From sequence record OR352941.1: 64,000 nucleotides of DNA. One strand, 5' to 3'. A program made the position numbers and the translations under genes. Of the stretch, positions 11,849 to 37,824 are shown one piece after another (the stretch's first letter is position 1; each line of letters opens with the position of its first letter). Source of the DNA: Escherichia phage AV111. The notes beneath the pieces are model-generated. The model saw only the letters and a program-made list of their open reading frames with translations, ran no database searches and was not told the origin of the DNA.

Positions 11849-12660
11849 AATTCTAATTTATCCTTTTGAAATTCTTCGTCTAAATATGGGTTCCAACCCA
11901 TTTTAAACCTTTTGATGAAATTATCAATTCTAAATTTCGGTAAGTTTAAATCCGCAAAAATAGATGATTTACTTTTAAAATCTGGACCTAAATAATCATA
12001 TAAAATTTCTGCGTATTTTAACCATAATATATAAGTACCAGATTTAATTGCTCTCGGAGTTTTCCAAGGTTTTACACCATACATCGGATTTCCACTTCCT
12101 TTATGCCTGATAGAAGATGAAATTCCAATTTTAATTTTAGCTTCCTCTGTATGCGAAAATCCATGATGTGGATTTTCTTTCCAGTATTTTTTAGAAGCTT
12201 CTGATATTTTCTTTCTGGCTAAATTAGTATGATGCTTTCCATAAAATCCATGATTTTTACCTTTATTACGATTTCTTTTAATCATGGTTATTGATTGCTT
12301 TTTTCTAGTTTCTTTAGAAGGAGAAACACCATACGTTGTAAATTGACCATTAGCATATGCTAAATTAAAATACTCTTTATTCCATATATCTTTTTCTATA
12401 TTCTTTTGAAATTCAGCTTCAATGCTAGTTATTTGCTCATCTCCGACTAATTGAAAATATAATATTTCAACTTTCGGCGTTTCTTTCAACAGGGCTTTTT
12501 GAAATTCGGAAGATGACGAAGACGAATAATAAAATTTACCATTTTTATCAATAATATTCGTTCCGTCAAAAGTGCAATTAGTTTTACTTCCAATGTAATA
12601 ATATGGCGGGGTTTTAGCATTAATTCTATTAATAAATGATAGTTTATATACTACATTCAT
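11839..12660 (-). CDS. GIY-YIG (Seg-like) homing endonuclease with NUMOD3 repeats
   Basis: 273 aa; N-terminal VYKLSFIN...YYYIGS GIY-YIG-type motif; Lys-rich S.E.K.KIS repeats; inserted between nrdD and gene 49. Confidence 0.65.
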   Translation of the reverse strand: MNVVYKLSFINRINAKTPPYYYIGSKTNCTFDGTNIIDKNGKFYYSSSSSSEFQKALLKETPKVEILYFQLVGDEQITSIEAEFQKNIEKDIWNKEYFNLAYANGQFTTYGVSPSKETRKKQSITMIKRNRNKGKNHGFYGKHHTNLARKKISEASKKYWKENPHHGFSHTEEAKIKIGISSSIRHKGSGNPMYGVKPWKTPRAIKSGTYILWLKYAEILYDYLGPDFKSKSSIFADLNLPKFRIDNFIKRFKMGWNPYLDEEFQKDKLELCL

Positions 12661-14745: not shown

Positions 14746-15005
14746 TTAAAATATTCTCGCAGTTGATCAAATCCGCCAATGTGACTTCCGTCAGGAGCAA
14801 ACACTTGAGGCATAGTCAATCCAACTTGTGATTCACGTCCAAGCTTAACCAGAAGCTCAGTAATTTTCTCATCATCGAACACACCTTTTTCTGGCATAAC
14901 ATTAATGAATTCGAATGGCTGTTTCTTAACAGTCAGCAATCGTTTCGCATTATCACAATAAATGCATTTATGAATAGTAGAGTCATAACCGTACACTTTA
15001 AACAT
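14742..15005 (-). CDS. nrdC: thioredoxin (phage glutaredoxin)
   Basis: MFKVYGYDSTIHKCIYCDNAKRLL... matches recalled T4 NrdC; ATG 15005 with SD AAAGGA; 87 aa. Confidence 0.9.
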   Translation of the reverse strand: MFKVYGYDSTIHKCIYCDNAKRLLTVKKQPFEFINVMPEKGVFDDEKITELLVKLGRESQVGLTMPQVFAPDGSHIGGFDQLREYFK

Positions 15006-15411
15006 TATTTTTCCTTTCATCGATTAAATATGCAACACCAAATACAATACATGTAATAAAACCTGTGATACCGATAGAGAACATCAACACTGTACCAAAG
15101 AACCAAATCAAGTTATCTTTGGTAGTTTGTTTGATATCCATCTCACGAATTTCTATAGCTATCGTATCACCTTTATTCAGAAGCGTATAAAACGATGGCG
15201 ATACACGCCTGTCAAAAACTCGTCCTTGTTCATCTTTATAAACTGCAATAAATTCCAGTTTAGAATATTTTCCTGTAGATTGGCCTGAGATTAATTCTAC
15301 TACCTCCACAGGAATTACTTTAGTTTCCATGTAAGTATTCTGGCTGTTCCAAATGAATGGAATGATGGCAAAAACTAAAGCTGCAATAAAACAACGAAGG
15401 CTATATCTCAT
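14998..15411 (-). CDS. membrane protein, N- and C-terminal TM segments
   Basis: 137 aa, hydrophobic at both ends. Confidence 0.5.
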   Translation of the reverse strand: MRYSLRCFIAALVFAIIPFIWNSQNTYMETKVIPVEVVELISGQSTGKYSKLEFIAVYKDEQGRVFDRRVSPSFYTLLNKGDTIAIEIREMDIKQTTKDNLIWFFGTVLMFSIGITGFITCIVFGVAYLIDERKNNV

Positions 15412-15716
15412 TATAATGTTCTCTCAAATTTGTGGAAGCATTTACGGCATTTCAATTTCAAGTTATCAGTGGTCCAGTTAACCAGTTGGACTTGGATAGT
15501 TCCACATTCCGGGCATGGATGTTTTGCTGCCGATTTGGCAGCATTTTCACGTCGTTCAACCATTTTCATTATTTCGTTCCATGCCGGAGGAACGAACTCT
15601 TCTTCACCGTGGATTTTATCTCGCTGAACAAATTCAATCTTTGAACTATCGTCAATAAACTTAACCAAGCCATGATTAGTGCTCATATCAATATCCTCTA
15701 AAAGACGTAGTTTCAT
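15411..15716 (-). CDS. zinc-ribbon protein
   Basis: 101 aa; CPECG...CRKCFHKF C4 motif. Confidence 0.5.
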   Translation of the reverse strand: MKLRLLEDIDMSTNHGLVKFIDDSSKIEFVQRDKIHGEEEFVPPAWNEIMKMVERRENAAKSAAKHPCPECGTIQVQLVNWTTDNLKLKCRKCFHKFERTL

Positions 15717-16666
15717 TATAACACCTCAATGGCATTTCGTAAACCGTCCGCTTTCGCATTCAGAGCTTTTAACGATTTAGTTTGTTCTGCAATCTGGGCT
15801 TCGACTTCTTTCAGACGAGATTTGAGGTACTCACGTTCTTCGCTCAAGTTGTCAACTTTTTCTACTTTAGGTTCTTTAATAGTCTTAAGTTTATACTCGT
15901 TAGGGTTCTTCAACTTAATTCGGGTACGAGAACTATATAACATTGAACCGTTATCTTCGGATTCGTCGAACGTTTCAACAACATCCATAGTCTCTAACAA
16001 TGTAATAAGTTTATAAGACAACGAACGAATAGTTTTGTTGTGCTTATTAATTTCTTCGGCTTTCATAGTACCGAGATTACGTGAGTAGTAATAAGGAACC
16101 TGGATATCAATTGACAATGATGCGTTACCATTACCAGTTGGTTTGAATACTGCAGTAACCCAATCTTTAACATGAACTTTATTTGTACGGCCATCACCGC
16201 CAGTGAATAATTTACGAGAATGTTTAAAAAGCATATTCACTTGTTTATTGAATTCACAAGCAAATTTATCAGCAAATTTAGTTTCAGGAATGGTAGATAA
16301 CCAATCAGCCAAATGAGTCTTTTTAACATCATTAACAATAGTGAATTCAACCAAATCGGTTTTAGATGTCACAGATTTAATAAAGCTCGGTTTCATAAAG
16401 TTTTTAATGTTATCGCGAGCTACAGTAGAAGATAATAAACGAGAACGTTTGAACCATTGAAGCAGCGTCCCTAGTGAATGAGAATATGCATTTTGAGTAT
16501 CTTTACAGATATGATTTTCTTGGCCTGTGTATGTACCAAAATCGCGAAGAATACCACTTACTACATCTCGGTGTGGAACATCAAATCCTAGTGCACCAAC
16601 AGCGCGCTGGGCACGAACGTTAGCGATAAGACCGGCAAAGTATTCAATGTAATGTGAACGTGTCAT
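15716..16666 (-). CDS. hypothetical protein with C-terminal coiled coil
   Basis: 316 aa; own early promoter 16695-16724. Confidence 0.55.
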   Translation of the reverse strand: MTRSHYIEYFAGLIANVRAQRAVGALGFDVPHRDVVSGILRDFGTYTGQENHICKDTQNAYSHSLGTLLQWFKRSRLLSSTVARDNIKNFMKPSFIKSVTSKTDLVEFTIVNDVKKTHLADWLSTIPETKFADKFACEFNKQVNMLFKHSRKLFTGGDGRTNKVHVKDWVTAVFKPTGNGNASLSIDIQVPYYYSRNLGTMKAEEINKHNKTIRSLSYKLITLLETMDVVETFDESEDNGSMLYSSRTRIKLKNPNEYKLKTIKEPKVEKVDNLSEEREYLKSRLKEVEAQIAEQTKSLKALNAKADGLRNAIEVL

Positions 16667-16694
16667 AATATTTTCCTCTCGTTAAGATAGATTC

Positions 16695-16724
16695 ATTATA
16701 CTCCAACCATCCTTGGTTGTAAAC
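16695..16724 (-). promoter_or_regulatory. early promoter
   Basis: Minus GTTTACA-N17-TATAAT; spacer holds CCAACCA/TGGTTGG inverted repeat. Confidence 0.55.
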
Positions 16725-16728
16725 CGTT

Positions 16729-17685
16729 TTATGATTTTAATGCATTCATTGCGTTAAAAAGTTTAGAATACTGCAACTGGAGATTCGTTACAACACTTTG
16801 AGCATCACGAAGCTTAGCTTGTGCTTTGTCAAGTTCAACGGACAGTTGGTCTACAGTAGCCTTGATTTGGTTGTAATAATAATCTTCGGCCGGAAGAAGG
16901 TCATTAGAAACATTTAGTTTTACTGCCGACAGTTTGCACACATTTGGCAAACCTTTAAACATATCGGGTTGTGCCGGAGAATATGCGCTTAGAACCTCTG
17001 CATTACCGACTGGTGTTGCTGTGATATTGCCTTCGAACGTTGCATTTTCCTTTTTAAGATTTTGATAGTATTCAGAGTCTTTGTGCCACCATGGCGCAGG
17101 AACCTTTTTACCAATAGATACACGAGCCTGGATAGCGATATGGCCCTTATTCTTGATAATGTCGATAATATTAAGCTCACGAGAATAAATCGCTTTAATC
17201 TGGTGGATATTATCACCTAAAACTTCCAACGCTTGGTGGAATACACGAGCAACGTTATCATTCTTAGGTTTATACGTAAGAGTGAACTCATTCTCACTGA
17301 TAACCATGATTTCCAACTTATCGTAAGTATATTTCAAATGTTTCATGTTAATTGCTTGAGGACGAATACGAGAAGCAATGGCCATCAAATTGTTAAGGTT
17401 ATTTCTGAACTGTTTAGCAAAATATTGTCCGGTGCCGCCGATACAAAAATTACGAAGTTTCTGTTTGGCTAATAAACGGCTGAACTCACCATTTTTAATG
17501 AACTCTTTAACGGGTGTGTTGGTAACGCATTCAAATTGAGTAAACTTACGAGAAGTAATCCCATAATATGAACAGATTTCCTCAATCTCTTCAGGAGTCT
17601 TTACAGGCATACGGATAGGATTAGGTCCTGGAGTATATGCGTTCGAGGTAAATTCTTTAATAAGTTCTCTACGTGTAATAGCCAT
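16729..17685 (-). CDS. hypothetical protein with C-terminal coiled coil
   Basis: 318 aa; own early promoter 17712-17740. Confidence 0.55.
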   Translation of the reverse strand: MAITRRELIKEFTSNAYTPGPNPIRMPVKTPEEIEEICSYYGITSRKFTQFECVTNTPVKEFIKNGEFSRLLAKQKLRNFCIGGTGQYFAKQFRNNLNNLMAIASRIRPQAINMKHLKYTYDKLEIMVISENEFTLTYKPKNDNVARVFHQALEVLGDNIHQIKAIYSRELNIIDIIKNKGHIAIQARVSIGKKVPAPWWHKDSEYYQNLKKENATFEGNITATPVGNAEVLSAYSPAQPDMFKGLPNVCKLSAVKLNVSNDLLPAEDYYYNQIKATVDQLSVELDKAQAKLRDAQSVVTNLQLQYSKLFNAMNALKS

Positions 17686-17711
17686 TTTATATTCCTCATG
17701 TTGAAAAATTT

Positions 17712-17740
17712 ATTATACTCCAACCATCCTTGGTTGTACA
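17712..17740 (-). promoter_or_regulatory. early promoter
   Basis: Minus TGTACA-N17-TATAAT, same spacer as 16695-16724. Confidence 0.5.
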
Positions 17741-18736
17741 TCATTCCTTAAGAAGTTTTACTACCTGAATAAGATTAGCTCGTTCTGTTTTATTTTTACC
17801 GTTTAAGCCTGCTAATCGTGAGATTTCATCGTCAGTCTGCTGAATAGTTACATTAAGTTCGTTAATCAAAGCTTCAAAGTATTTGATTTGCTCAGCATGT
17901 TTTGATTCAAATTTCTGAACCGGAATAACGTCTTGGTTTAGTTCATCAATAAGGTCTTTAAGAGCATCTTCTTGGTTGATATCATATTCAACTTCTTTTA
18001 TTTCTTCAACGAGCTCGTCTTTATATCTAACGTCTTTTAGTCCTGGTGCGGGTCCCGAAATCTCTTCTTTAAGAGTACAAACATATCCAATACGATATCC
18101 AATGCCATCTCGCTTGATATCAACTTCGTCGATAAATCCACAATGTTTAAGTCCAGAGCCGATTATGTCAAAATATCCTTGACGTCGCCCTTCAAACGTT
18201 ACACGAACTACTAAGACGGTTTTACCTGCAACCTTTTGAAGCTCACATTTATAAAAGTCAGTTGAACCTGAATAACGTGGATGAGTTTTAAAGTTCATCT
18301 GACGATCTAGGCCCATTTGTAAACGTGCTGATACAGCCAGAAAACGTGTTTGGTTCTCGTTAAGATGAGCAACAATCTGTTTCAAAGGCATTTTACCCTG
18401 TTCACGACCGAACAAATCGGTACGTCCTAAATTACGCAGGATATTGTTAGAGTTAATCATCGACAGAACGTTAAGTTTATTCAGCGCGCTGAAGATTCCA
18501 TCAGCCATTGATTTTCCATAACCTTTACACGCTTTAATAAGTGCTCGCGGCAGATTAGTATAAATTTCAGACGGCATATGAAAATCAAATTTTCTAACCA
18601 ATAATTGATGAACTTGGATAGCAATTTGCTCATAATTAAGTGCTCTGCGATCGTTATGGTCTTTAAACCACACTTTAATCTGTGAAGCACATAAACCGTT
18701 AATTTCATGTTTTACCGCATCAGATGTAATGCTCAT
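17741..18736 (-). CDS. hypothetical protein with C-terminal coiled coil
   Basis: 331 aa; promoter-like element 18772-18797. Confidence 0.55.
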   Translation of the reverse strand: MSITSDAVKHEINGLCASQIKVWFKDHNDRRALNYEQIAIQVHQLLVRKFDFHMPSEIYTNLPRALIKACKGYGKSMADGIFSALNKLNVLSMINSNNILRNLGRTDLFGREQGKMPLKQIVAHLNENQTRFLAVSARLQMGLDRQMNFKTHPRYSGSTDFYKCELQKVAGKTVLVVRVTFEGRRQGYFDIIGSGLKHCGFIDEVDIKRDGIGYRIGYVCTLKEEISGPAPGLKDVRYKDELVEEIKEVEYDINQEDALKDLIDELNQDVIPVQKFESKHAEQIKYFEALINELNVTIQQTDDEISRLAGLNGKNKTERANLIQVVKLLKE

Positions 18737-18771
18737 AACTATTTCCTCAGATTGAATTGGAACTCAAAACC

Positions 18772-18797
18772 ATTATAACCCGTCCTTGGGTAAAGCG
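18772..18797 (-). promoter_or_regulatory. promoter candidate (middle-type?)
   Basis: Minus CGCTTTAC (MotA-box-like) about 13 nt upstream of TATAAT at 18772-18777. Confidence 0.35.
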
Positions 18798-18798
18798 T

Positions 18799-19326
18799 TT
18801 ATGCGTGAACCGTCTTTAAACGTTCTTCAAATTTCCGAAGAGTACTAATACGTTCTGCTTTCTGTTTTGTATAGTTTGCAATACGTTCTGAAGTGAGAGC
18901 GTATCGTTCGTTTACTGTTTCTTTCATGAAGTCAGGGATTTCACGAGAAGCTTTAATTTCATCAAACTTATCGAGTACCGCCTGGTCTTCAGCGATTAAA
19001 TTTTCGTACATCTCGATATCTTTCTTGATAAACTCGATATCTTCCTGGGTTACTTTGGATAAACGAGATGCTTTATCCTTTTTGTACTGATCGTTAGTTT
19101 CACGAGACCAGAATAATGTACGTTTTTTGTTAGTGTTTTTGTAGACTTCCACAATTCCAACTGAATCGATGATAGCAATCCAATTCCAGCGAGATTTGAA
19201 AATCTGACCTCCGTCCACGGTAATCTCGTTACCATAAGCAATGTCATTAAAGAACTTACTTTGTGCTTCAGATTTAAATTTACCGTCGTTATAATTTACC
19301 AGGTTGAAAATATCTTTAGCGTTCAT
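18799..19326 (-). CDS. hypothetical protein
   Basis: 175 aa; early promoter 19354-19383. Confidence 0.5.
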   Translation of the reverse strand: MNAKDIFNLVNYNDGKFKSEAQSKFFNDIAYGNEITVDGGQIFKSRWNWIAIIDSVGIVEVYKNTNKKRTLFWSRETNDQYKKDKASRLSKVTQEDIEFIKKDIEMYENLIAEDQAVLDKFDEIKASREIPDFMKETVNERYALTSERIANYTKQKAERISTLRKFEERLKTVHA

Positions 19327-19353
19327 GTTTTACCTCCAGTAGTTGATAGGTCT

Positions 19354-19383
19354 ATAATAACATAACCATAGACCTTGTAAACA
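19354..19383 (-). promoter_or_regulatory. early promoter
   Basis: Minus GTTTACA-N17-TATTAT; AGGTCTAT/ATAGACCT inverted repeat. Confidence 0.5.
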
Positions 19384-19384
19384 A

Positions 19385-19672
19385 CTAAAAGAAACTTTTT
19401 TCGGTATTTTTTCCACTGAACCAAACAGACTTCGGGATTTTTTGTAATTTTTCAGATTTAAGTTTCTCTTCCTGTTCTTTCTTATATACACCCTTGTCGT
19501 ACTGGAGCATCTCTATGGCATTCTTTTGCAAACGATCTAAGGTAATTAAGGCTTTAGTTTTTCCTTTCAAGGAAGAGTCCTGGCGAACCTCCTCGCTATA
19601 TTGCATTGTAGAACTAACCATACGATGAGCATAGAGTTCGACTGCGGCTTTAATTTTTTGCATAAAATCCAT
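19385..19672 (-). CDS. hypothetical protein
   Basis: 95 aa ORF; overlapping 68 aa ORF 19567-19773 is an alternative. Confidence 0.35.
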   Translation of the reverse strand: MDFMQKIKAAVELYAHRMVSSTMQYSEEVRQDSSLKGKTKALITLDRLQKNAIEMLQYDKGVYKKEQEEKLKSEKLQKIPKSVWFSGKNTEKSFF

Positions 19673-19810: not shown

Positions 19811-20812
19811 TTATTTCAGTAAAGTTACTTCAGAGATTTCCTCCCAACCATCTTTATCAGTTGAAATAAAATCTGCTACATAAAGAGCCGTACGTAATGA
19901 TACATTGCGAAGACGAGATACGTTAGCCTTCATCCAGGACAATGCTTTATACGTTTCTGCATCCGTCAGACCACGTTTCTGCATCATGTCAGTAGATAAT
20001 ATTACATCTTCAACTCGAACCATAATCTCTTCATTAGAGTGTACTCCAAGGTCGAGATACACTGAACGAGATACTAAAGCTTGAAGGTGTGGAGCAAGTT
20101 TCGAACCCCGTTCTAACTCTTTATCGATATCAACGTTTGTAATGAAAACGATAGTACCTTCAAACTCAAATTCTTTATCAATACCCTTATCCTCGAGATA
20201 AGATGACGCAGTGCTCCAACAAACTTTGCGTTTATCTCCGGTATCTAATGCTGCTTTAAGAAGGTTCAGGATGTCCATATCTGAGAATACGTCAACGTCA
20301 TCGATTAAGAGAACGCTGTCTGCATCACGGTTGAGCCAAAGTTGTTCGTAAAGGCCAATACCAGAGATTTTACCATTAATGCTTTTGTATTTGATGAAAC
20401 CATTATCATTAGCATTATTAAGTGCTTTATCCAGAGAATACGTCTTACCAATACCAGCTGCACCTGAAATAATGAGTGAACGAATTTTGCCATCGATAAT
20501 GCCATTCGTCATCATGTTCATTACTTTAAAGCGTTTGTTGATACGAGTTTTCATATCTTCAGTGCTTTCAACAACTGCAACTGGTGATGTCTCAACTCCT
20601 TCCATTACGATGTCTGATTTGAAGACCCATACTCCACGTTCAGAACCATCAATCATAACGAAAATTTTACCATCACCTAAGTGTGAACATTCAGGATTAA
20701 GCTTTGCCGGGAACCATGTCTTTGTGGCAACATAAGAACCAGAGATTTCGTTATTACGATAGATACCTTTTTTGATTTGAACGTTGAACATTTTATTCTC
20801 CAATTTACTCAT
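19811..20812 (-). CDS. P-loop NTPase (AAA-like)
   Basis: 333 aa; Walker A ISGAAGIGKT, Walker B VLLIDDVD, sensor-like FITN. Confidence 0.6.
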   Translation of the reverse strand: MSKLENKMFNVQIKKGIYRNNEISGSYVATKTWFPAKLNPECSHLGDGKIFVMIDGSERGVWVFKSDIVMEGVETSPVAVVESTEDMKTRINKRFKVMNMMTNGIIDGKIRSLIISGAAGIGKTYSLDKALNNANDNGFIKYKSINGKISGIGLYEQLWLNRDADSVLLIDDVDVFSDMDILNLLKAALDTGDKRKVCWSTASSYLEDKGIDKEFEFEGTIVFITNVDIDKELERGSKLAPHLQALVSRSVYLDLGVHSNEEIMVRVEDVILSTDMMQKRGLTDAETYKALSWMKANVSRLRNVSLRTALYVADFISTDKDGWEEISEVTLLK

Positions 20813-20905: not shown

Positions 20906-21895
20906 TCATTTATAGTACGAATTGTGGTTTTCTAAGTAAACTTGCTCAAGGAAATCATCCCAGAAACTCATATCTACTTTTTGTTGCATACCGTTCTTAG
21001 CGGCTTGTTCTGATGCTTGTTCTACCTGGTCAACGATATCTTCTAGGAATTCTTGCACAGTTTTAAACGTATGTTTACCAAGCTTAACATCGAGAATAAA
21101 TGGAGCATCCTGAAGTGGGTAAACCAGGTCACCGGTTTTGTAAATTTCCAATAGTTGAAGTCCACCACGACATGCATGACTCAATGCTTTCCAGTCAATA
21201 CCTTCGTTGGCTTCTGCCTTACGAGCACGTTCACCATAGTTCTCTTCCAGTTTAACCAGGATGGCATTGAACTCTTTATTGGTTAACGTGTCTTGGAATT
21301 TACGGTCTAACAGATTATAGAATGTTTGCTTACCTGTTTTCTCGTTTTCGGTTTCAACCCACGAAGCAAATTCACCTACGGGCAGAACATTCTTCATATG
21401 TGATAAACGAATTACTGCACCATTATCAAAGTATTGTCCCCATTCATTAGAACGTTTAAGGGCTTGACGAAGAACGGCCAGTCGAGAACCCTTGACACCA
21501 TATTTAGAAGCTTGCTTACGGACATACCCTAAATAAGATTTCATGTTAGTGGTATAGAAACGAGACCTGTTATCTTGAATATACTTCCATACATCAGGCA
21601 AATCAGATTTAACTACTAGACTTGGTGGAGTGTGAAGCATATCTAATGCGACGGTTTCACCATCCGCAGCCAGTTTAAAGAAATATTTGAGACTATATAA
21701 CTCATGGTCCACGTCGTCTTTTGTGTTCTTAGAAGATGTGTTATTCGTGTTCTTGCTCATGTGTTCTTTAACGTTACCGGTCAAGATATCACGAGCATGA
21801 GGGACATAAATTTCTTTAAAATCGACGTCAGATTCAGGAGTAGACGTTCCATAAAGGTGGCTACCAAAGTAGCCTTTCATAATTGTTTTCATCAT
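20906..21895 (-). CDS. nucleotidyltransferase-fold protein (Pol-beta-like superfamily)
   Basis: 329 aa; N-terminal FGSHLYGTSTPESDVDF matches the hG[GS]-x(9-13)-Dh[DE] NTase signature. Confidence 0.55.
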   Translation of the reverse strand: MMKTIMKGYFGSHLYGTSTPESDVDFKEIYVPHARDILTGNVKEHMSKNTNNTSSKNTKDDVDHELYSLKYFFKLAADGETVALDMLHTPPSLVVKSDLPDVWKYIQDNRSRFYTTNMKSYLGYVRKQASKYGVKGSRLAVLRQALKRSNEWGQYFDNGAVIRLSHMKNVLPVGEFASWVETENEKTGKQTFYNLLDRKFQDTLTNKEFNAILVKLEENYGERARKAEANEGIDWKALSHACRGGLQLLEIYKTGDLVYPLQDAPFILDVKLGKHTFKTVQEFLEDIVDQVEQASEQAAKNGMQQKVDMSFWDDFLEQVYLENHNSYYK

Positions 21896-37795: not shown

Positions 37796-37824
37796 ATAGT
37801 ATCACCATCCTTGGGGCTTGTACA
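37796..37824 (-). promoter_or_regulatory. early promoter
   Basis: Minus TGTACA-N17-TACTAT. Confidence 0.5.

Follow-up and report, generated by a model that had tools for sequence, protein, structure and literature searches.

Three tandem NrdC.x proteins of Escherichia phage AV111 as remote paralogues and candidate counter-defence binders

We analysed three consecutive genes in a 64,000-nucleotide stretch of DNA from Escherichia phage AV111 (sequence record OR352941.1), the whole of which is referred to here as the window. The open reading frames (ORFs), all on the minus strand, are ORF1 (15716..16666; 316 amino acids (aa)), ORF2 (16729..17685; 318 aa) and ORF3 (17741..18736; 331 aa), and they lie in the nrdC.x accessory region, at the site where T4 has nrdC.3 to nrdC.6. 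Here we find that T4 NrdC.3, NrdC.4, NrdC.5 and NrdC.6, together with single-copy genes adjacent to nrdC in related phages, form one superfamily in which ORF1, ORF2 and ORF3 are remote paralogues. The explanation that we favour for the whole, with moderate confidence, is that tandem paralogues of this superfamily act as host-specific counter-defence binders. As T-even accessory genes these genes already carry names, and a phenotype has been published for the family in which ORF2 is a divergent member; the new element is that four T4 nrdC.x genes, with their relatives, are brought together in a single superfamily.

All three ORFs are real genes. Each has an ATG start and an upstream GAGG-type ribosome-binding site, and the annotation of Escherichia phage vB_EcoM_PhAPEC2 holds the same three coding sequences (CDS). 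The window belongs to a Mosigvirus: its 4-kb stretch 15400-19400 is 98.6% identical to PhAPEC2 and is matched in 607 phage records, with CDS annotated there. A preliminary description of the window had proposed three early proteins of 316-331 aa and of undefined function in the nrdC.x accessory region; the coordinates hold exactly, the placement holds as well, and the genes do appear to be early or middle accessory genes whose biochemical function is undefined.

Remote paralogy of NrdC.3 to NrdC.6

The preliminary description saw no obvious similarity among the three proteins, which is true of pairwise BLAST, where ORF1, ORF2 and ORF3 have no mutual similarity (E > 1), but not of profiles. Weak BLAST links connect T4 NrdC.4 to ORF1 (E 7e-5) and NrdC.3 to NrdC.4 (E 0.012). 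For profile comparison, family alignments were assembled from the syntenic region of T4, seven IMG/VR T4-like contigs and members of Dhakavirus, Jiaodavirus, Karamvirus and Gelderlandvirus. With hhalign, NrdC.3 matched NrdC.4 at 98% (E 1e-13), NrdC.5 matched NrdC.3, NrdC.4 and the single-copy members combined at 96.7% (E 3e-10), and NrdC.6 matched all others at 94% (E 9e-8). Of the pairwise and profile comparisons that the preliminary description had proposed as a check, the profile comparison reveals remote paralogy (hhalign E 1e-13 to 9e-8).

The signal does not reside in the C-terminal coiled coils. Upon removal of the last 55-60 residues, NrdC.3 still matched NrdC.4 (E 2.8e-14 and 1.5e-10 in two comparisons) and NrdC.5 still matched NrdC.4 with the single-copy members (E 8.5e-7); without its last 55 residues, NrdC.6 matched all others at 74% (E 2.9e-5). 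Reversed-sequence controls gave E 0.04-0.5, and 0.1-0.7 in the C-terminally trimmed comparisons. No branch of the superfamily has diverged further than ORF3/NrdC.6, and the ORF2 and ORF3 families match each other only weakly when compared directly (E 0.02-0.03), being joined through NrdC.4 and the single-copy members.

In a 14-sequence alignment, several blocks are common to the superfamily. An N-terminal block, M(K)TR..YI..F, is found in the NrdC.3, NrdC.4 and NrdC.5 branches and reads MTRSHYIEYF in ORF1 and MAITRRELIKEF in ORF2. It is accompanied by the blocks 'F+.S.LLS...A...L+NF', 'F...F......L...++L..GD' and 'L..MDVVE', and by a terminal heptad helix ending 'L..AL..LK'. Three unrelated ORFans, alike just in their size and in a coiled coil of generic type at the C-terminus, the reading implicit in the preliminary description, would account for the pairwise BLAST result, and coiled coils can produce spurious profile matches, but we consider this very improbable, because the profile-profile matches survive deletion of the coiled coil over the same 120-150 core columns, the reversed-sequence controls are at E 0.04-0.5, motifs outside the coiled coil are conserved at matching positions in all branches, and ORF1 and ORF2 share the order of their predicted secondary-structure elements.

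Each ORF has a T4 counterpart, so the earlier statement that they resemble no recognised protein does not stand. ORF1 is NrdC.3: it shares 56% identity with the T4 protein along its full length (E 8e-118), matches the phrog_1435 profile with residues 1-316 on positions 1-333 of 334 (E 6.2e-102), and lies in the orthologous position, directly after the NrdC.2 homologue. Both T4 NrdC.3 and T4 NrdC.4 match phrog_1435. ORF2 is a Mosigvirus-type NrdC.5: its residues 14-317 match PF23882 (DUF7235) end to end, on positions 1-307 of 307, scoring 400.1 bits where the cutoff is 30 (E 9.3e-120), and T4 NrdC.5 matches the family with 420.6 bits (E 5e-126). The two fall in the same PHROG (phrog_2351), share the nrdC.x position, a similar length and a C-terminal coiled coil, and RB69 names its ORF2 counterpart NrdC.5; they differ in that T4 NrdC.5 has two insertions not found in ORF2 and that identity is only ~25% (E 4e-11). 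ORF3 is a Mosigvirus-type NrdC.6: it matches the phrog_2257 profile with residues 1-331 on positions 1-303 of 303 (E 1.2e-126), T4 NrdC.6, with which it shares 30% identity (E 1e-19), also matches this profile, and ORF3 is in the orthologous position, with the NrdC.8 homologue and the promoter element of ORF3 directly before it. ORF1 and ORF3 thus keep the T4 gene order relative to nrdC.2 and nrdC.8, whereas the window differs from T4 in being without NrdC.4 and NrdC.1 and in having NrdC.7 relocated beside nrdC. T4 NrdC.3, NrdC.4 and NrdC.6 count as conserved hypothetical early proteins; precomputed Pfam assignments on relatives name PF26897 for NrdC.3/NrdC.4 and PF26899 for NrdC.6.

A separate observation concerns T4 itself. 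In the T4 reference (NC_000866), the 3' end of nrdC.6 (12005-12140; 275 aa) is frameshifted, and the protein ends in ...LIFLFNNMMMKFSDYLD before the stop. Read one base out of frame, the tail becomes ...LSGLSSKAKSEREKLIKIVDLLKS, which matches ORF3 and the ~295-aa copies of T-even phages; the reference NrdC.6 lacks the terminal helix because its C-terminus is frameshifted relative to these relatives. The one-base-shifted reading agrees with the 891-nucleotide (nt) nrdC.6 of the T4D annotation in the HIDEN-SEQ study.

Across the seven genera examined, one to four members, typically ~300-360 aa long, stand in synteny between nrdC.10 and nrdC: four in Tequatrovirus, three each in Mosigvirus and Dhakavirus, and one each in Jiaodavirus, Karamvirus and Gelderlandvirus, with one further member directly upstream of an nrdC-like gene in Acinetobacter Lazarusvirus (89.5%, E 2e-6). 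Counterparts of ORF1 (NrdC.3) occur in 653 phage records as three alleles, ~55%, 76% and 90-100% identical to ORF1. A homologue search with ORF2 alone found only relatives of at least 81% identity, and with the full-length superfamily alignment at least 32 proteins passed; we suspect that coiled-coil words crowded the candidates in the latter search. A profile search without the C-termini was improved, yet T4-type NrdC.4, NrdC.5 and NrdC.6 were not among the matches returned. When the profile of the globular part was run against 1.84 billion representative proteins, 13 matches were obtained. One, a 511-aa repeat protein (P0077), was rejected as a spurious match; another (P0075) has no relative among isolated phages; and the others, where identifiable, are proteins of T4-like phages or fragments of such proteins. 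The superfamily is phage-restricted.

Architecture and predicted fold

Each protein consists of a globular part of ~250 aa, a variable linker and a C-terminal coiled coil of ~45 aa. The preliminary description had predicted a coiled coil at the end of each protein, in agreement with heptad periodicity, coiled-coil matches in the Protein Data Bank (PDB) and, for ORF1 and ORF2, a terminal helix in AlphaFold2 (AF2) models. Heptad periodicity is strongest in the last ~50 residues of all three, and the maximum is C-terminal in 10 of the 10 sequences scored. PDB sequence matches of the family profile are coiled coils only, at profile positions ~226-327, and the search found no solved relative beyond these C-terminal matches. 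In ORF1 the helix spans aa 274-315 (15722..15847, minus strand) and ends ...GLRNAIEVL; in ORF2 it spans aa 265-317 (16735..16893, minus strand) and ends ...KLFNAMNALKS, both by heptad periodicity and AF2. By heptad periodicity and alignment, the C-terminal helical region of ORF3 covers aa ~279-331 (17744..17902, minus strand), carries a GLNGKNK interruption and ends ...LIQVVKLLKE.

An AF2 model of ORF1 was built from a 29-sequence superfamily alignment and reached a mean predicted local distance difference test (pLDDT) score of 74.4 and a predicted template modelling (pTM) score of 0.69. It predicts an N-terminal helical bundle (residues 3-88), an alpha/beta region (residues 93-252) in which a long helix (203-226) stops just before the MDVVE motif, a disordered linker (residues 260-274) and a single terminal helix (residues 274-315). 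Searched against BFVD, the model matched, over the full length and with E 4e-8 to 5e-4, uncharacterised proteins of ~320-380 aa from T4-like phages of Acinetobacter, Klebsiella, Serratia, Erwinia and Shigella, which, on these predicted structures, extend the family.

We found no catalytic domain by searches of Pfam, NCBIfam and PADLOC, the last two being wholly without a match. In a comparison of 29 members, near-invariance is confined to one Asp and two Leu, which favours a binding scaffold over an enzyme; with no conserved catalytic constellation, an enzymatic function was rejected. A structural or assembly role was likewise rejected, on the grounds of the early promoters and of non-essentiality.

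Candidate role in counter-defence and alternative readings

One member of the superfamily has a published phenotype. Dsr1 is a SIR2 defence of E. coli ECOR17 that is counteracted by the T4 early gene nrdC.5 (PMC9391042), and plating of a T4 nrdC.5 deletion phage on cells with dsr1 from ECOR17 was restored by plasmid-borne nrdC.5 (Srikant et al. 2022, eLife, PMC9391042). Clear homology to a characterised T4 protein, which the preliminary description held would speak against it, is therefore present in part, through the anti-Dsr1 phenotype of the ORF2 family member T4 NrdC.5 (PMC9391042). Inhibitors of other defences have also been reported: T4 nrdC.1 inhibits Septu, and bas37_0203, which has the position and size of NrdC.8 in phage Bas37, inhibits Druantia III (both 10.1101/2025.11.20.689424), while T6 gp49.2 inhibits OLD (PMC13096335). 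From the literature on the neighbouring genes, the synteny region around nrdC.x is an anti-defence island. Transposon sequencing classes nrdC.3 to nrdC.6 as non-essential, and likewise their orthologues in Bas37.

We infer that ORF1, ORF2 and ORF3 are counter-defence proteins that act by binding, a role that for ORF2 is suggested by homology. Under this proposal, anciently diverged tandem paralogues of a T4-like (Straboviridae) superfamily would be kept as dispensable accessory genes, with early or middle promoter cassettes of their own, in a region with several proven anti-defence genes. Each paralogue would act by stoichiometric binding, without enzymatic activity, and would neutralise its own host immune protein or its own allele of a shared one, with specificity provided by the variable globular part and avidity by the conserved coiled coil. 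Since T4 NrdC.5 neutralises the Dsr1 of ECOR17, a Dsr1-type SIR2 NADase would be the first candidate target of ORF2. A possible analogue is DSAD1, an SPbeta-type protein that binds and blocks DSR2 (PMC10981675): as with NrdC.5, a phage accessory protein would face a SIR2-type NADase with a large sensor region, direct binding being presumed for NrdC.5, although the parallel is one of analogy only and DSAD1 acts on DSR2 and not on Dsr1.

Such a role would matter beyond these genes. Accessory genes like these are what the host range of T4-like phages, which serve as model organisms and as candidates for therapy, depends on; at least one superfamily member stands beside nrdC in seven Straboviridae genera of two subfamilies, and one branch has the anti-Dsr1 phenotype. 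Together with the unification, these results allow unexplained sequence, ~1 kb for each gene, to be read as a short list of testable counter-defence candidates. If the targets are distinct, the family would show one scaffold retargeted to different immune sensors, and the partners of ORF1 and ORF3 could reveal defence systems that T-even phages currently mask.

Several points weigh against assigning the three proteins to counter-defence by binding. The phenotype in the family comes from T4 NrdC.5 only, and not from ORF1, ORF3, NrdC.3, NrdC.4 or NrdC.6; the effect of NrdC.5 on Dsr1 could be indirect; and, because ORF2 is only ~25% identical to T4 NrdC.5, its target may differ or have been lost. 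When the Bas37 orthologues (bas37_0198 to 0201) were disrupted, fitness on CFT073 and CFE299, both uropathogenic strains, did not change significantly (HIDEN-SEQ tables), a null result that fits host-specific roles and gives them no positive support. That the coiled coil makes the proteins oligomeric is presumed. Finally, the AF2 model of ORF2, from a 31-sequence superfamily alignment, has a pLDDT of 44 and is unusable for a fold search, its order of elements being the same as that of ORF1.

Among other functions, the paralogues might modulate host physiology or takeover, binding housekeeping machinery (transcription, nucleoid, division or metabolism) and tuning early infection to the host or its growth condition. 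Host-shutoff factors are numerous among the early proteins of T4. This possibility and counter-defence are equally well served by early or middle promoters and by non-essentiality, and it is in keeping with the lack of a defence-related phenotype of the Bas37 orthologues on CFT073 and CFE299. We nevertheless regard it as unlikely: T4 NrdC.5, the sole member tested, is defence-specific in that its rescue matters only with dsr1 present, proven anti-defence genes are over-represented in the neighbourhood, and rapid allelic turnover together with copy-number variation is seen more typically in genes of an arms race than in modulators that act on conserved host machinery.

A different proposal is that the proteins are decoys with a virion fold, in which an alpha/beta middle domain like that of tail terminator or completion proteins (gpU/gp17) would occupy immune sensors before the late structural triggers appear. 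Bacterial sensors do recognise virion folds, the tetratricopeptide repeat (TPR) sensor of Dsr1 recognising the major capsid protein and Avs15 the tail terminator (PMC12803255). Low-ranked tail-completion matches were present in BFVD, and PF11367 (Tail_completion_gp17) was weakly matched by 2 of 15 members, best by a Jiaodavirus protein at aa 172-209, where the score of 15.5 bits (E 0.019) stays below the cutoff of 24.5. PF11367 found no match in ORF1 or ORF3; in ORF2, aa 1-258, which make up its globular part, matched DUF7235 only. A Foldseek search of the ORF1 model against the PDB returned nothing with E < 0.04, and the model itself draws on only 29 sequences (pLDDT 74). Because PF11367 stays sub-threshold and the Foldseek search against the PDB gave nothing significant, we treat the resemblance as a lead and have rejected membership in a tail-terminator family. 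The known terminator and completion proteins (lambda gpU, SPP1 gp17 and T5 p142) also have an essential late assembly role, unlike the window genes with their early or middle elements and non-essential orthologues; the window proteins are about twice as long, with an extra helical bundle and the coiled coil, and the likeness lies below usual confidence limits. Simple decoy logic moreover misfits the only datum, since Dsr1, the known target of the family, senses a capsid protein and not a tail terminator. Taken together, we hold decoys of this kind to be decidedly unlikely.

A broader and more speculative version, to which we give slightly less credence still, is that the superfamily might be a Straboviridae-wide modular anti-sensor toolkit: oligomeric early proteins with a core derived from or mimicking a terminator or completion fold, duplicated and diversified so as to have each paralogue plugging a different TPR-type sensor (Dsr1, Avs-like) before the late triggers. 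Were this so, immunity that senses structures would be countered by a general strategy, that of the 'virion-fold decoy'.

Promoters, neighbourhood and variation

The promoter-like element that the preliminary description assigned to each gene is sigma-70-like for ORF1 and ORF2 and of another form for ORF3. Early-promoter-like cassettes precede ORF1 (16695..16723, minus strand; TTTACA-17-TATAAT, 11 of 12 matches) and ORF2 (17712..17740, minus strand; TGTACA-17-TATAAT). The two promoters share, as had been noticed for their spacer, an identical core of 27 nt, TACAACCAAGGATGGTTGGAGTATAAT, for which 0 matches are expected by chance. In both cassettes the spacer holds a hairpin, CAACC-AAGGAT-GGTTG, and then GGAG; this GGAG, a RegB-type motif, directly follows the hairpin in the early-promoter copies. 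The element before ORF3 (18772..18797, minus strand) comprises CGCTTTA, 13 nt with the hairpin ACCC-AAGGAC-GGGT, and TATAAT. It lacks the -35/-10 form, is orthologous to the element that follows nrdC.8 in T4 and, by comparison with the published MotA-box consensus, is probably a MotA-box or middle-promoter-like element.

Between phages the hairpin stems covary (CAACC/GGTTG, AGCC/GGCT, CATCC/GGATG, ATACC/GGTAT and ACCC/GGGT) around a constant loop, AAGGA(T/C), which suggests a conserved RNA or DNA element within cassettes resembling promoter early stem-loops (PeSLs). The PeSL class, with a stem-loop between -35 and -10, has been described (Arbiol et al. 2010, PMC2839356), and the phages in which PeSLs were reported are RB49/phi1, PST and nt-1 rather than a Mosigvirus (PMC2839356; Comeau et al. 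2014, PMC4122927). Like PeSLs, the ORF1 and ORF2 elements combine a sigma-70-like early promoter with a stem-loop and are intergenic, before accessory genes of a hyperplastic region; they differ from them in the constant loop with covarying stems. No T-run follows the hairpin, and no terminator-like site was called on the minus strand of the scanned region. The identical 27-nt cores, with no nrdC.4 between them, would fit past recombination between copies without proving it. A fourth CCAAGGATGG copy lies at 37805-37814 (minus strand).

On the transcribed strand, the gene order is an nrdC.11-like nucleotidyltransferase, an nrdC.10-like AAA protein, an nrdC.9-like gene, nrdC.8, ORF3, ORF2, ORF1, an nrdC.2-like gene, an nrdC.7-like gene and nrdC. 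By tblastn, no homologue of NrdC.1 (the T4 anti-Septu protein) or NrdC.4 was found in the window. Directly upstream of ORF3, at 18799-19326 (minus strand), a 175-aa ORF is 83% identical to T4 NrdC.8, and because bas37_0203, in the NrdC.8 position, inhibits Druantia III, it is probably an anti-Druantia gene. Beyond ORF1 the order is unlike that of T4, a membrane protein like NrdC.7 (14998-15411, minus strand; 41% identity) adjoining nrdC and being followed by a zinc-ribbon protein like NrdC.2 (15411-15716, minus strand). At the other end, the NrdC.10-like P-loop/AAA protein (19811-20812, minus strand) has counterparts throughout Straboviridae and in some jumbo phages (1,311 phage records), and the adjoining gene (20906-21895, minus strand) encodes a nucleotidyltransferase of RlaP type that is NrdC.11-like; as a pair, the two genes are widely conserved.

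A natural NrdC.5/NrdC.3 chimera of 299 aa (P0063), found on ~167 kb contigs, corresponds in residues 1-129 to T4 NrdC.5 146-272 (94% identity) and in residues ~124-299 to NrdC.3 residues 134-308, from which we deduce a deletion that fused nrdC.5 to nrdC.3 with loss of nrdC.4, the junction lying at a short FN..VN microhomology. In ORF2, the linker that connects the coiled coil to the globular part (residues ~225-262; ~16900-17013, minus strand) is hypervariable, with insertions and deletions among Mosigvirus orthologues that are otherwise 88-96% identical; it reads NITATPVGNAEVLSAYSPAQPDMFKGLPNVCKLSAVKLN in one orthologue and SIIVAPTIGTINAASTQPVMFNGTPS… in another.

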